A stretch of DNA of 64,000 bases. Origin: Escherichia coli. Its GTDB lineage: Bacteria; Pseudomonadota; Gammaproteobacteria; Enterobacterales; Enterobacteriaceae. Below are positions 18,256 through 56,621 of the stretch, in pieces (the stretch's first letter is position 1; each line of letters opens with the position of its first letter). The position numbers and the translations under genes are program-made. The stretch lies in NCBI RefSeq assembly GCF_003334405.1, contig NZ_QOWM01000007.1; one strand, written 5' to 3'. The notes beneath the pieces are model-generated. The model saw only the letters and a list, made by a program, of their open reading frames with translations, was not told the DNA's origin and did no database searches.

Positions 18256-19503
18256 TTAGCCAAATTTAGGTAACACGTTAAAGACGTTGCCGAACCAGCA
18301 CAAAATCACGGTTATACCAAAGAGAATGACAATCGCCGGAATAAGATTGCCGCCCCAGACCGTGAACATCTGATTGGGAAACTTCTTGCGAGCTTTGATT
18401 GCAAGCACTGCGGGAATAATGACCGCCCAGATGGTGGCGCACAGCCCGGCACCGCCGATCCCGTAAATAAAGCCGTTCGGGAAGATCAGATACAACAACG
18501 CAGGTGGCAGGAAGGTTAACAGCACGGTTTTGAAACGCCCGCCGTGGGAGTTATCAATCTTAAACAGGTCCGCCAGATAATCGAACAACCCCAGCGTGAC
18601 ACCAAAGAACGAACTGGCAACAGCTAAGTTAGAGAACACCAGCAGGCAAAACTCGATAATGCCGTGCTGTTTGGTGCCGAGGAACGATTTCACCAGCGAA
18701 TCAACGTTGCCGCCTGAGGAGATAATCGCCTTAAAGCTTTCTCGCGGAATATTCCCCATGGTGCAATAGAGCCAGAAGAGATAAATCACCAGCGCCAGCA
18801 GCGAACCAAATACCACGCTTTTGATTAACTTATCTTTGCGTTTTCCATAGCAAATAATCAGGCTGGGAATATTGCCGTGGAAACCAAATGACGCCAGACA
18901 CACCGGCAAAGCCATAAAGATATACGGGAAGTAAGACGTTCCCGCAGTGGAGCTGGTGGCGTCGCGCAGAATGGAGTAATCGACCTGGAAGAAAAAAGAA
19001 CCAAACACGATCACAAAGGAGATAATCTTCAGCCCGAGGAACAATGAGGTAATACGACTGGCGGCTAACGAACTTAACCACAATACGCTGGCAACGAAAA
19101 TGGCTGTGCAGATCCCGACAATACGTGGATTAGCGTGATAACCCAAATTCATTGATATCGTTTCACTAATGATCGCACCATTAGCAGAGATATAGGCATA
19201 AGTGAGGATATAGAGAACGAAGGCAACGGTAATACCGCTGATAATGTTCCAGGTGTTACCGATTAAATCTTTGGTGATGGTGTTAAAACTGGAGCCGACG
19301 GGATAATTTAAATTTGCTTCTAATAACAATAACCCGGAATGAAGCATTGAAAACCAGGCAATGATAAGGATAAAGGCACCCCAGAAAAACCAGGCACCGG
19401 CAAGATCAACAGGTAAAGCAAACATACCTCCACCAATTACTGTACCTGCTATAACCATAACACCCCAAAATGCAGAGTGCTTTTTTTCAGCTTGATCAGT
19501 CAT
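18256..19503 (-). CDS. tnaB: Low-affinity tryptophan permease TnaB
   Basis: 415 aa aromatic amino acid permease. Confidence 0.95.
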   Translation of the reverse strand: MTDQAEKKHSAFWGVMVIAGTVIGGGMFALPVDLAGAWFFWGAFILIIAWFSMLHSGLLLLEANLNYPVGSSFNTITKDLIGNTWNIISGITVAFVLYILTYAYISANGAIISETISMNLGYHANPRIVGICTAIFVASVLWLSSLAASRITSLFLGLKIISFVIVFGSFFFQVDYSILRDATSSTAGTSYFPYIFMALPVCLASFGFHGNIPSLIICYGKRKDKLIKSVVFGSLLALVIYLFWLYCTMGNIPRESFKAIISSGGNVDSLVKSFLGTKQHGIIEFCLLVFSNLAVASSFFGVTLGLFDYLADLFKIDNSHGGRFKTVLLTFLPPALLYLIFPNGFIYGIGGAGLCATIWAVIIPAVLAIKARKKFPNQMFTVWGGNLIPAIVILFGITVILCWFGNVFNVLPKFG

Positions 19504-19593: not shown

Positions 19594-21009
19594 TTAAACT
19601 TCTTTAAGTTTTGCGGTGAAGTGACGCAATACTTTCGGTTCGTACGTAAAGGTTAATCCTTTAATATTCGCCGCGTTCTCTTTCACATGTTTAAAGGCTT
19701 CAATAATGAAGTCCATATGTGTTTGAGTATATGTTGCGCGCGGAATGGTTAAACGCAGCAGTTCAGCCGGGCATGGCAGTTGTTTACCGGTTTTCGGATC
19801 GCGGCCTAACAGGAAAGAGCCAATTTCTACCGCACGGATACCGGCGACTTTATACAGCTCGCAGGCCAGCGCCTGTGCCGGGAACTGGTCTGCCGGGATA
19901 TGCGGCAACAGTTTACCGGCATCAACGAATGCCGCGTGACCGCCCGCCTGCTGGCAGACAACGCCAATCTCTTCCAGACCATCGACCAGATACTGTACCT
20001 GCGCGATACGATAAGCCAGCCAGTCGAGATTCATACCGTCATACAGACCTACCGCCAGACGCTCCATCGCGCCGCCTTCCAGGCCGCCATATGTCGGGAA
20101 GCCTTCCTGCACCACGCAAAGGGTTCTGCACTCGGTGTACACATCAAAGAAGCTGTCGTCTTTCATGCACAGCAGGCCGCCCATCGGCACCATCGCATCT
20201 TTCTTGGCGGACATCGCCAGCATATCGGCATATTTGTAGGTTTCGCGGGTGATCTGCTCGATGGTCCAGTCTTTGTATTCTGCTTCACGCTGCTTGATGA
20301 AATAGGCGTTTTCAGCAAAGCGCGCGGAGTCCATTACCACCGGAATATCGTATTTCTTCGCGATGCTGTACATCGCTTTTAAGTTTGCCAGTGAAACCGG
20401 CTGACCACCTGCAGAGTTACTGGTGATGGTTGCAACGATATACGGCACGTTATTCGGACCAACTTCTTCAATACCGCGTTCTAATCCCTCAAGGTCAAAG
20501 TTGCCTTTAAAGTCGTAACGCACGCCCGTATCGAAGGCTTCTTTGATATAGACGTTACGCACGGTACAGCCGTTGATCTGGCTATGGCCCTGCGTGGTAT
20601 CAAAGAAATAGTTAGAGAACGCCACCATTTTGCTGCGATCCAGGCCTTTTTCCTGCTCGCGTTTTTTAATCAGTACCGGAATATAGATTTGCTCTGCGCC
20701 ACGGCCCTGGTGAGTCGGAATGGTGTATTGATAACCAAAGATATTTTTCACTGACTCGGCTAACGCATAGTAGCTACGACTGCCGCTGTAGGCTTCGTCG
20801 CCGCGCATCATCGCAGCCTGCATGCTCTGCGTCACCGCCCCGGTGCCGCTGTCGGTCAGTAAATCGATAAACACATCTTCGCTATCCAGCAGGAACGGGT
20901 TCATACCGGATTTAATAATTGCCTCTTCACGATAAGCGCGAGTGGTACGTTTTACTGGCTCAATAACACGAATGCGGAACGGTTCAGGGAGATGTTTAAA
21001 GTTTTCCAT
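19594..21009 (-). CDS. tnaA: Tryptophanase TnaA
   Basis: ATG at 21009 ([14 protein letters not shown]...) gives 471 aa; track ORF from 21024 is a 5' extension. Confidence 0.96.
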
Positions 21010-21229
21010 TACATAATCCTTCATTTATTTTAATTACAGTGATCCCTGTGAATATTACATCTGCTATACCGATTAATTCGCCAGATATATATGCAAGCAC
21101 CATCATTTACTAAAACAAGTAAATAAACGAGAGATGACCTTTGCAAAAGGCAAAATTAAGATATAGCAAACAAATAGATCACATTGAATCTAATCGGTTT
21201 GGCTCTGGTGATGGCTACAGAAGGGCAAA

Positions 21230-21304
21230 TCAAGGGCGGTGATCGACAATTTTGTTGTCAATATTGAACCATTTTGAGGTCACACATATATGTAAGATAT
21301 TCAT
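21230..21304 (-). CDS. tnaC: tna operon leader peptide TnaC
   Basis: 24-codon ORF read by hand: MNILHICVTSKWFNIDNKIVDHRP; 220-nt spacer to tnaA. Confidence 0.9.
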   Translation of the reverse strand: MNILHICVTSKWFNIDNKIVDHRP

Positions 21305-21379
21305 AATGCACTTATCCTCGCAAGACACGAGGCTACATTATTACACTCAGAGTTTTTGTCTATTCTGAAATTGTTTAAA

Positions 21380-21395
21380 TGTGAATCGAATCACA
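21380..21395. promoter_or_regulatory. CRP site of tna promoter
   Basis: tgtgaatcgaatcaca, perfect TGTGA-N6-TCACA palindrome about 75 bp upstream of tnaC. Confidence 0.75.
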
Positions 21396-21504
21396 ATCGT
21401 TCGGGGAGCAATATTAAATGCTTTTTTTAAAGATTATAAATTACGTAAGAATTTTAATGTTTAAAAAAAGGGTTGAGGAATAACAGGAGTGGTAACAATG
21501 AAGC

Positions 21505-21536
21505 GAAGCCGCATCTGACAGTCAGAATGCGGCTTC
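21505..21536. terminator. Hairpin downstream of mnmE
   Basis: 10-bp stem gaagccgcat / atgcggcttc with palindromic loop ctgacagtcaga. Confidence 0.55.
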
Positions 21537-21546
21537 GTAAGCGCGG

Positions 21547-22911
21547 TTACTTACCAATACAGAAGCTGGAGAAAATCCGCCCCAGCAGGTCGTCTGAAGT
21601 AAATTCCCCGGTGATTTCGCTTAAGTTCTGCTGTGCCAGACGCAACTCTTCCGCCAGCAGTTCACCTGCCCAGGCTCCCAACAGTTGCGCTTTGCCCTGT
21701 TGTAGATGTTCCGCTGCCTGTTCCAGCGCCTGTAGGTGGCGACGACGCGCCAGGAAGCCGCCTTCCATGTTGGTGTCAAAGCCCATGCTCTGTTTGAGAT
21801 GGTTACGCAGCACGTCCACGCCTTCACCAGTCCTTGCCGAGAGACGAATTAACGCGTGACCGTTCACTTCACTCATTCCCAGCGTTTCGCCGGTGATATC
21901 GGCTTTATTGCGCACCACGGTGATCGGCAGTTTCGCTGGCAGACGGGCAATAAATTCCGGCCAGATCTCTGCCGGATCCACGGCGTCTGTTGTGGTGCCA
22001 TCGACCATAAACAGCACGCGGTCGGCCTGTTCAATTTCCTGCCACGCGCGCTCGATACCAATACGTTCTACTTCGTCACTGGCTTCACGTAGCCCGGCGG
22101 TATCGATGATATGCAGCGGCATTCCGTCAATGTGGATATGCTCACGCAGCACGTCACGCGTAGTTCCGGCGATATCGGTTACGATTGCCGCTTCACGCCC
22201 CGCCAGCGCGTTTAACAGGCTCGATTTACCGGCGTTAGGACGTCCGGCAATCACCACTTTCATCCCTTCGCGCAACAAACTACCCTGACGTGCTTCAGCA
22301 CGCACTGCATCAAGATCGGCAATAACGTCATTGAGCTGGGCTTCAATTTTTCCGTCGGAGAGGAAATCGATCTCTTCATCGGGGAAATCAATTGCCGCTT
22401 CGACGTAAATGCGCAAGTGGGTGAGGGCTTCTACCAGATGATTAACCCGTGCGGAGAATGCGCCTTGCAGCGAGTTAAGTGCCGAACGGGCCGCCTGTTC
22501 CGAACTGGCGTCGATAAGATCGGCAATCGCCTCGGCCTGGGCTAAGTCAAGTTTATCGTTAAGAAACGCGCGTTCGGAAAACTCACCAGGGCGAGCAATC
22601 CGCAGGCCGGGAATGGTCAGAATGCGTTTTAACAGCAGGTCGAGGATCACCGGACCGCCATGACCTTGCAGTTCCAGCACATCTTCGCCGGTGAACGAGT
22701 TCGGGCCAGGGAACCATAGCGCAATCCCCTGATCGAGCACGCTGCCGTCGGCGTCTTTAAACGGAAGATAATCGGCGTAGCGCGGCTTAGGCAGTTTACC
22801 CAGCACGGTTTCGGCAACTTCACGGGCTTTGAAGCCGGAGATGCGCAGGATGCCAACGCCGCCACGTCCCGGAGGCGTGGCCTGGGCTACGATAGTGTCA
22901 TTATCGCTCAT
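21547..22911 (-). CDS. mnmE: tRNA modification GTPase MnmE
   Basis: 454 aa; G1 motif GRPNAGKSS; C-terminal CIGK. Confidence 0.96.
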
Positions 22912-26009: not shown

Positions 26010-27413
26010 GTGTCACTTTCGCTTTGGCAGCAGTGTCTTGCCCGATTGCAGGATGAGTTACCAGCCACAGAATTCAGTATGTGGATACGCCCATTGCAGG
26101 CGGAACTGAGCGATAACACGCTGGCCCTGTACGCGCCAAACCGTTTTGTCCTCGATTGGGTACGGGACAAGTACCTTAATAATATCAATGGACTGCTAAC
26201 CAGTTTCTGCGGAGCGGATGCCCCACAGCTGCGTTTTGAAGTCGGCACCAAACCGGTGACGCAAACGCCACAAGCGGCAGTGACGAGCAACGTCGCGGCC
26301 CCTGCACAGGTGGCGCAAACGCAGCCGCAACGTGCTGCGCCTTCTACGCGCTCAGGTTGGGATAACGTCCCGGCCCCGGCAGAACCAACCTATCGTTCTA
26401 ACGTAAACGTCAAACACACGTTTGATAACTTCGTTGAAGGTAAATCTAACCAACTGGCGCGCGCGGCGGCTCGCCAGGTGGCGGATAACCCTGGCGGTGC
26501 CTATAACCCGTTGTTCCTTTATGGCGGCACGGGTCTGGGTAAAACTCACCTGCTGCATGCGGTGGGTAACGGCATTATGGCGCGCAAGCCGAATGCCAAA
26601 GTGGTTTATATGCACTCCGAGCGCTTTGTTCAGGACATGGTTAAAGCCCTGCAAAACAACGCGATCGAAGAGTTTAAACGCTACTACCGTTCCGTAGATG
26701 CACTGCTGATCGACGATATTCAGTTTTTTGCTAATAAAGAACGATCTCAGGAAGAGTTTTTCCACACCTTCAACGCCCTGCTGGAAGGTAATCAACAGAT
26801 CATTCTCACCTCGGATCGCTATCCGAAAGAGATCAACGGCGTTGAGGATCGTTTGAAATCCCGCTTCGGTTGGGGACTGACTGTGGCGATCGAACCGCCA
26901 GAGCTGGAAACCCGTGTGGCGATCCTGATGAAAAAGGCCGACGAAAACGACATTCGTTTGCCGGGCGAAGTGGCGTTCTTTATCGCCAAGCGTCTACGAT
27001 CTAACGTACGTGAGCTGGAAGGGGCGCTGAACCGCGTCATTGCCAATGCCAACTTTACCGGACGGGCGATCACCATCGACTTCGTGCGTGAGGCGCTGCG
27101 CGACTTGCTGGCATTGCAGGAAAAACTGGTCACCATCGACAATATTCAGAAGACGGTGGCGGAGTACTACAAGATCAAAGTCGCGGATCTCCTTTCCAAG
27201 CGTCGATCCCGCTCGGTGGCGCGTCCGCGCCAGATGGCGATGGCGCTGGCGAAAGAGCTGACTAACCACAGTCTGCCGGAGATTGGCGATGCGTTTGGTG
27301 GCCGTGACCACACGACGGTGCTTCATGCCTGCCGTAAGATCGAGCAGTTGCGTGAAGAGAGCCACGATATCAAAGAAGATTTTTCAAATTTAATCAGAAC
27401 ATTGTCATCGTAA
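26010..27413 (+). CDS. dnaA: Chromosomal replication initiator DnaA
   Basis: GTG at 26010 ([14 protein letters not shown]...) gives 467 aa; Walker [11 protein letters not shown]; track ORF from 25998 is a 5' extension. Confidence 0.96.
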
Positions 27414-32055: not shown

Positions 32056-32154
32056 GCCTGATGCGCTACGCTTATCAGGCCTACGAAAATCTTGCAATGT
32101 ATTGAATTTTCATGATTTTGTAGGCCGGATAAGGCGTTCACGCCGCATCCGGCA
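32056..32154. repeat. BIME: two REP palindromes in opposite orientation after gyrB
   Basis: gcctgatgcgctacgcttatcaggcctac (32056..32083) and taggccggataaggcgttcacgccgcatccggca (32121..32154). Confidence 0.7.
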
Positions 32155-56440: not shown

Positions 56441-56546
56441 ATATTTGGACAAAACGCAAACTGTGATCGATACTCAACTATGCACTAAATACGTCAAAAT
56501 TCGTGCCGAAATTGCGCGTTCTGCGCGGAACACGTATACTTTCAGT

Positions 56547-56621
56547 GTTGACATAATACAGTGTGCTTTGCGGTTACCAGCCGCAGGCGACTGACGAAAC
56601 CTCGCTCCGGCGGGGTTTTTT
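56547..56621 (+). ncRNA. istR: IstR-1 antitoxin sRNA (IstR-2 would be a 5'-extended form starting near 56480)
   Basis: TATACT -10 at 56535..56540 with TTGCGC -35 at 17-bp spacing; 75-nt unit ending in hairpin cctcgc-uccg-gcgggg + U6; 5' end repeats 20/21 nt of 56289..56309. Confidence 0.75.

Follow-up and report, generated by a model that had tools for sequence, protein, structure and literature searches.

The leader of the tnaCAB operon of Escherichia coli K-12 (tnaC, b3707), as described in the model from the Yanofsky laboratory, is the textbook example of how a nascent peptide makes the ribosome a sensor of a small molecule and of how an upstream open reading frame (uORF) controls Rho-dependent termination, and it serves as a tryptophan biosensor in synthetic biology. 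We analysed the tna leader in a stretch of E. coli DNA of 64,000 nucleotides (nt) from contig NZ_QOWM01000007.1 (assembly GCF_003334405.1), hereafter called the window. Over the 601 nt compared there is no difference between the two leaders: positions 21539 to 20939 of the window are the exact reverse complement of E. coli K-12 MG1655 NC_000913.3 3888200-3888800 (100% identity), where tnaC is annotated as the 'tnaAB operon leader peptide' (3888435-3888509) and tnaA starts at 3888730. The leader is therefore interpreted here by the published mechanism; it is an already known leader, and is the type example itself. Its recognition from raw sequence illustrates that a compact regulatory region of several parts can be identified in this way, and adds nothing on the system itself. 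The sole increment is comparative and concerns the Enterobacteriaceae: a Rho utilization (rut) tract that is conserved as composition, followed by a structurally conserved hairpin that overlaps both the Spot 42 site and the region of Rho termination mapped in vivo.

Several other leaders resemble this one in part. In the speFL-speF ornithine sensor, mgtL, the corA leader and cruR, uORF ribosome arrest that depends on a small molecule also governs the access of Rho to a nearby rut site (PMC12360218), but the peptide, the ligand and the operon are different, there is no sequence relationship to tna, and in some members of this group the rut site is exposed by refolding of the RNA instead of being masked directly. 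The trpL leader has in common with tnaC a short Trp-containing peptide and the co-transcriptional control of a tryptophan-related operon. However, trpL senses charged tRNA(Trp) via tandem Trp codons and uses alternative hairpins and an intrinsic terminator, whereas tnaC relies on Rho and responds to free L-Trp, which is sensed in the exit tunnel while the ribosome is at a stop codon. Closer relatives are the tna leaders of the Proteus vulgaris and Morganella type, in which tnaA is likewise preceded by a leader peptide with W-x3-D-x7-P. In P. vulgaris, stalling takes place at elongation rather than at termination. The TnaC-like peptides of Morganella (...WFNIDHRISNFFP(E/N)-stop) are longer, with about 33 residues, and have one extra codon, for E or N, between the critical Pro and the stop; their spacers measure 133-141 nt, and the site resembling that of the cAMP receptor protein (CRP) is weaker, with 2-3 mismatches. 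Unlike these, the window has no codon between the Pro and the stop, which is the E. coli layout. Pelistega indica has a 20-residue peptide, MYFSSKRWFNIDPKITFFFP, with only 53 nt before tnaA and without a CRP-like site.

The tna leader of the window almost certainly operates by the published two-layer control, in which CRP-dependent initiation is combined with Rho-dependent attenuation that is relieved by Trp-induced ribosome stalling. The attenuation layer had been expected from the layout by the first-pass annotation, which was made from the letters alone, and it is supported as the published mechanism for the identical K-12 sequence. Identity, anatomy, composition, conservation and family membership are shown by the present analysis. 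Stalling, Rho dependence and CRP dependence are established in the literature on that sequence, and stalling with masking of the rut site has been described together with cryo-electron microscopy (cryo-EM) structures (PMC8429421, PMC10941005, PMC12360218). According to this mechanism, cAMP-CRP on the palindrome at 21380..21395 would act as a Class I activator and bring RNA polymerase to a weak sigma-70 promoter, and the operon would therefore be off in glucose. The first gene on the transcript would be tnaC, with its 24 codons. When tryptophan is scarce, release factor 2 (RF2) would free TnaC at the UGA and the ribosome would depart, so that a boxA-like sequence and the C-rich, unstructured rut tract on both sides of the stop would become accessible. 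Rho would then load on the rut tract, reach the polymerase paused in the 220-nt spacer and terminate transcription before tnaA. At high tryptophan, free L-Trp bound in the exit tunnel beside the nascent TnaC (W12, D16, I19, P24) would block the cleavage of TnaC-tRNA(Pro), and the ribosome would remain on the stop codon. There it would mask boxA and rut, Rho would not load, and transcription would proceed into tnaA and tnaB.

All of the tna elements are read on the minus strand, which the first-pass annotation had left unstated. In that direction, the 3' end of mnmE is followed by an A+T-rich intergenic segment, the palindrome, the promoter, a Shine-Dalgarno (SD) sequence, tnaC, the spacer and tnaA. 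The range 21010-21420, which had been singled out as the leader, does enclose tnaC, the spacer and the palindrome. The genes tnaC, tnaA and tnaB are consecutive on the minus strand, with tnaC as the short ORF immediately 5' of tnaA. Each of the three products scores above the curated cut-off of its NCBIfam model, and the models for TnaA and TnaB are of the equivalog class: TnaC matches TIGR02616 (tnaC_leader) with 44.3 bits against 23.55 (E = 1.1e-11), TnaA (tryptophanase; 19594..21009, ATG at 21009, also annotated in RefSeq) matches TIGR02617 with 1010 bits against 825.8, and TnaB (low-affinity tryptophan permease; 18256..19503, also annotated in RefSeq) matches NF007235 with 925 bits against 497. 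Of 5426 complete E. coli genomes, 5420 gave a match to the 601-nt segment used as a query. The match was chromosomal in every case and lay over annotations of 'tnaC: tryptophanase leader peptide' and of tnaA; query coverage was below 80% in 791 of the 5420. IS1 insertions lie within the region in some other E. coli genomes. An Rfam covariance-model scan of 20800..21700 at E <= 1 matched no family. Such a blank is no surprise for a sensor that consists of a peptide and the ribosome rather than of an RNA fold, and we did not count it against the identification.

The tnaC peptide and the rut-like tract at its stop codon

The tnaC gene occupies 21230..21304 (read 21304..21230), where RefSeq also annotates it, and consists of 24 codons followed by TGA. 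Translation of this interval gives MNILHICVTSKWFNIDNKIVDHRP and bears out what had been claimed of the peptide, namely 24 codons with a single Trp at codon 12 and a Pro, Pro24, immediately 5' of the stop (CCT TGA at 21235..21230). The critical residues W12, D16, I19 and P24 are all in place with the spacing W-x3-D-x2-I-x4-P, and these four residues are necessary for TnaC function (PMC10941005). Cryo-EM has captured the arrested TnaC-tRNA(Pro) with L-Trp bound (PMC8429421), and TnaC has been detected by mass spectrometry following in vitro translation (PMC7186457). The 5' untranslated leader of tnaC (presumably 21305..21328, minus strand) contains the SD sequence GAGGA at 21319..21315. A CCTCG/CGAGG hairpin 5' of this SD was considered and set aside, because its 5' arm lies upstream of the likely transcript start and the transcribed part has no fold.

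Conservation was assessed at two levels. Within the species we compared six diverse E. coli that are 95-100% identical over the region, and across species we scanned one genome per species with a degenerate TnaC pattern. The scan gave 74 matches, about 40 of which were chance matches inside unrelated ORFs and were dropped by requiring tnaA downstream. The 33 tnaC-tnaA loci that were kept (the window counted), 28 of them of Enterobacteriaceae type, come from Escherichia, Citrobacter, Kluyvera, Leclercia, Buttiauxella, Serratia, Pantoea, Pluralibacter, Cedecea/Klebsiella sp., Enterobacter sp., Morganella and Pelistega. Among the six E. coli, 6 codons of tnaC are variable and all of the changes are synonymous, the stop varies between TGA and TAA, and one of the 24 columns of the 5' untranslated leader is variable. 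The pattern K-W-F-N-I-D..IV.H.P-stop is kept in about 30 species from at least 12 genera. The scan itself imposed W-F-N-I-D, I19 and P24, yet every Enterobacteriaceae-type locus also has features that were not imposed, i.e., the preceding Lys, V20, H22, a length of 24-25 residues and a stop after the Pro. The synonymous-only variation in E. coli, along with a peptide that is kept across species, indicates that tnaC is under selection at the peptide level.

In the window tnaC ends with TGA. Several E. coli lineages and most of the other genera have TAA as the tnaC stop codon instead, whereas Buttiauxella, Kluyvera ascorbata and Leclercia sp. 29361 have TAG. TnaC is reported to be a preferential inhibitor of RF2, and UAG is read by release factor 1 (RF1) alone. 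The natural stop variants may therefore act differently.

Around the stop codon lie the two sequences that the stalled ribosome would mask. One is CGCCCTTGA at 21230..21238 (minus strand), which covers codons 23-24 and the stop and which we take to be a boxA-like sequence, going by the role reported by Konan & Yanofsky (2000). The other is a C-rich, G-poor, rut-like tract at 21196..21255 (minus strand) that straddles the stop. The first-pass annotation had proposed the C-rich, G-poor composition of the spacer as a check for a rut site. Applied to the whole spacer the expectation did not hold (C 15.9%, G 17.7%, A+T 66%), whereas it did hold for about 60 nt around the stop. A test on the whole spacer would wrongly fail because the spacer overall is not C-rich, and composition was instead scanned in sliding windows and expressed as a percentile of the background. 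The best 60-nt segment, 21255..21196, has 21 C and 9 G, ranks in the top 1.6% of the 60-nt segments on both strands, and is made up of the last 26 nt of tnaC (stop counted) and the first 34 nt of the spacer. Its core, the first 28 nt past the stop (21229..21202), is unstructured, with a fold no more stable than that of shuffled sequences (z +0.26). In the literature the rut site is put 'immediately downstream of' or 'immediately adjacent to' the tnaC stop (PMC10941005, PMC8429421). A location at the stop is what the mechanism needs, because a ribosome held at the stop must be able to cover the rut site.

The same bias is found in the other species. In a set of 22 loci whose peptides are all distinct, the 20 nt that precede the stop contain more C than G in 95%, and the 20 nt that follow it do so in all 22; the bias vanishes further downstream. 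Between genera, the sequences past the stop do not align, and thus the rut-like tract is kept as composition and not as sequence. Conservation of this kind is typical of rut sites.

Mapped RNA ends in the identical K-12 sequence can be transferred to the window by an exact coordinate relation. An in vivo Rho termination region at MG1655 3888562, with a bicyclomycin read-through score of 2.24 (p = 1.6e-21) (PMC7815308), corresponds to position 21177 of the window, which is spacer nt 53. A Term-seq 3' end at MG1655 3888521 (PMC7815308) corresponds to 21218, 12 nt past the tnaC stop, and this is roughly where a ribosome held at the stop would be expected to halt a 3' exonuclease. Another Term-seq 3' end, at MG1655 3888703 with a Rho score of 1.1 (PMC7815308), corresponds to 21036, 27 nt before tnaA. 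Position 21036 is also the 3' base of a small ACAG/CUGU hairpin.

CRP site and promoter

A perfect TGTGA-N6-TCACA palindrome had been reported upstream, and it was indeed found upstream of the tna promoter at 21380..21395. Its sequence is TGTGAATCGAATCACA, or TGTGATTCGATTCACA when read on the minus strand (21395..21380), and it is the sole match to TGTGA-N6-TCACA in the 64-kb window. It could be argued that this palindrome is a chance occurrence, or the site of another regulator, and that the catabolite control of tna is indirect. In shuffles of the window 0.04 matches are expected and at least one was found in 4 of 100, and in the chromatin immunoprecipitation-exonuclease (ChIP-exo) study of Crp the protection directly over the motif was slight at Class I promoters (PMC5957442). 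But no position of the 16-mer differs among the six E. coli, although its flanks vary, at 9 of the 51 columns downstream (to the start) and at 14 of the 157 columns upstream. A CRP-type site was present in all 28 Enterobacteriaceae-type loci, with 0 mismatches in 11 and 1 mismatch in 17, from many genera, and in 27 of the 28 the distance from its centre to the tnaC ATG is 80-84 nt; the 60-nt distance in E. whittamii is an artefact of the choice of an upstream in-frame ATG. Moreover, tnaC is illustrated in the ChIP-exo study as a Class I Crp promoter with a Crp peak (PMC5957442), crp and cyaA deletion mutants have lost tryptophanase activity (PMC12962977), and catabolite repression of tna acts at the promoter (PMC8429421). 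A chance palindrome or a site for another regulator is thus extremely improbable, and CRP-dependent initiation is retained as the first layer of control.

In one E. coli strain, the one examined of the 791 genomes with query coverage below 80%, only 2 nt on the upstream side of the CRP site still belong to the stretch homologous to the window (from about 21397), and the site is intact. The upstream DNA in this strain is an island that encodes a ShET2/EspL2 type III effector in place of mnmE.

Downstream of the CRP site, a likely sigma-70 promoter was read by eye on the minus strand (21335..21362), with the -35 hexamer TAGACA at 21362..21357, a 16-nt spacer and the -10 hexamer TAATGT at 21340..21335. 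A sigma-70 consensus scan did not call it, and the sole call of that scan was a chance match on the plus strand. This is as expected, because the promoter is weak and dependent on an activator. The transcript start presumably lies near 21328, if the leader measures 319 nt (24 + 75 + 220). The CRP centre is 83 nt from the tnaC ATG in the window, and would thus be at -59.5 with this assumed start and at -61.5 with a start at 21326. In the Class I CRP promoters of the lac type there is likewise a single consensus-like CRP site 5' of a weak -35/-10 pair. Class I sites are centred near -61.5 or further upstream by one or more helical turns. The tna promoter would differ from lac in its CRP centre, about -59.5 (again with the assumed start at 21328) against -61.5, and the spacing of the CRP site relative to the likely -35 hexamer differs from that in lac by 1 bp only. 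A literature search on the position of the CRP site at the tna promoter found nothing.

The -10 region (21335-21350, minus strand), which adjoins the invariant CRP site, occurs as two alleles in E. coli. The allele GAGTGTAATAATGT is found in the window, K-12 and one other strain, and the allele GAGTATTATACTGT in 4 of the 6 strains compared; the two differ by a cluster of about 5 linked changes.

Nothing substantive stands against the two-layer control of the tna leader, and the three points that can be raised are minor. The CRP centre would be at -59.5 and not at the canonical -61.5 if transcription starts at 21328, the start that we assume. The other points are that the spacer taken as a whole has less C (15.9%) than G (17.7%), and that the Rho score of the Term-seq 3' end 27 nt before tnaA is only 1.1.

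The tnaC-tnaA spacer and its conserved hairpin

The spacer runs from 21229 to 21010 and measures exactly the 220 nt that had been claimed for it, up to the tnaA ATG at 21009. The C-rich tract is directly followed by an imperfect hairpin (spacer nt 26-65; 21165..21204, minus strand; -8.9 kcal/mol, z -2.0), and the remainder of the spacer (21010..21164, minus strand) is A+T-rich and carries the tnaA SD sequence AAGGA at 21021..21017. Pause and termination sites of RNA polymerase and the binding of ribosomal protein L4 have been assigned to this remainder (PMC7186457). The last 160 nt of the spacer (21169..21010, a segment with a slight overlap with the hairpin) have 12.5% C, 18.1% G and 69% A+T.

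The statement in the first-pass annotation that the spacer has no ORF is not literally correct, but it does stand for coding ORFs. The list of mechanical ORFs gives three on the minus strand that begin within the spacer or extend across it, of 25-38 codons: one that begins with TTG and has 25 codons (21233..21156), another TTG ORF of 38 codons (21146..21030), and an ATG ORF of 36 codons that overlaps the start of tnaA (21106..20996). None of them is annotated in RefSeq, and they show no coding constraint, with differences among the six E. coli that are mostly nonsynonymous. If one of them, e.g., the 36-codon ATG ORF, encoded a second small protein, its translation, and not Rho, might couple tnaC to tnaA. 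The overlap with the tnaA start and a reading frame that is open in 6 of 6 E. coli would fit this proposal. However, the differences in this ORF mostly change amino acids (A5T/V, S8H, I12M, G13D, D16N), unlike those in tnaC, it is unannotated in RefSeq, and no obvious Shine-Dalgarno sequence was seen upstream when the sequence was read by eye. The other two ORFs begin with TTG, and one of these is interrupted by a stop in two strains. We conclude that the 36-codon ORF is probably not coding, and coupling of tnaC to tnaA by a second small protein has next to no probability beside Rho-dependent attenuation.

A hairpin of 18-48 nt follows the C-rich tract directly in every Enterobacteriaceae-type spacer. 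Alignment by MAFFT failed on the diverged hairpins, and because of this RNAalifold returned no consensus structure for the 26 spacer sequences; the evidence comes from per-sequence folding, shuffle z-scores and subgroup alignments. For 27 distinct spacers, the segment of nt 19-73 had a mean shuffle z of -2.8, with 81% below -1.64, whereas two control segments further downstream had mean z values of -0.4 and +0.2. The consensus hairpin of a Kluyvera/Citrobacter subgroup comprises 14 base pairs, and at 4 of these both partners have changed in a compensatory manner. Ten other sequences retain the inner 5-bp stem, in which one pair is compensatory. After the hairpin, a motif like (C/U)AUGCCYUGAAUAAUU is found in many genera.

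A leader peptide with a Trp codon 5' of a tryptophan-related operon, together with a conserved hairpin and then U-rich sequence 26-65 nt past the stop, is also what attenuation of the trp type would look like, in which the position of the ribosome on the leader selects between a terminator and an antiterminator hairpin and termination is intrinsic. But tnaC has one Trp codon and no tandem run, and the critical event takes place at the stop codon. No intrinsic terminator was predicted on the tna strand of the tnaC-tnaA spacer, the hairpin is A/U-rich and weak (-8.9 kcal/mol), and the leader as a whole is no more stably folded than its shuffles (z -0.2). In addition, the logic is opposite, since tryptophan induces tna and does not repress it, and Rho dependence has been shown in vivo. 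Attenuation of the trp type is accordingly very hard to sustain for this locus, and Rho-dependent attenuation remains the reading within which we consider the hairpin.

The hairpin coincides with several mapped features. The in vivo Rho termination coordinate (window 21177) lies inside it, and its 5' arm, AGCCAAACCGAUUA (21204..21191), is complementary to the segment UAAUCGGAUUUGGCU of Spot 42 according to RNAduplex, for which the Spot 42 sequence was checked against E. coli genomes. Pairing of Spot 42 in the tnaC-tnaA spacer has been reported (PMC5748587), and ribosomal protein L4 footprints lie in the same general area as the hairpin (PMC7186457). The hairpin could bound the rut tract and set the pause or termination point where Rho catches the polymerase, and it could be a landing site for Spot 42 and ribosomal protein L4. 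Our tentative suggestion, which we hold to be possible and more doubtful than probable, is that the hairpin and the following motif are a functional and conserved part of the attenuator that was not explicitly described before.

A second small hairpin, GCCUUUUGCAAAGG, is found at about 21138-21151 on the minus strand (spacer nt 79-92), in Escherichia spacers only. For the segment of spacer nt 74-128 the z value is -3.2 in the window, -1.6 to -3.0 in other Escherichia loci, and about 0 in most other genera, with the exception of Enterobacter sp. kpr-6 (z -3.5).

Features around the leader and elsewhere in the window

The mnmE stop is at 21547 on the minus strand. Just past it, a perfect 13-bp G+C-rich inverted repeat, GAAGCCGCATTCTGACTGTCAGATGCGGCTTC, lies at 21502-21535 (minus strand) and is without a T run; a terminator scan did not call it. 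It is probably the end of the mnmE transcript or an element like the repetitive extragenic palindromic (REP) sequences that insulates the tna promoter.

Elsewhere in the window, four Rfam families match above their gathering scores: istR at 56492-56621 (plus strand, 150 bits), the AsdA antisense RNA of dnaA at 26520-26600 (minus strand, 102 bits), the ROSE_2 thermometer at 42251-42323 (plus strand, 100 bits) and the small RNA ES036 at 32077-32119 (minus strand, 45 bits).

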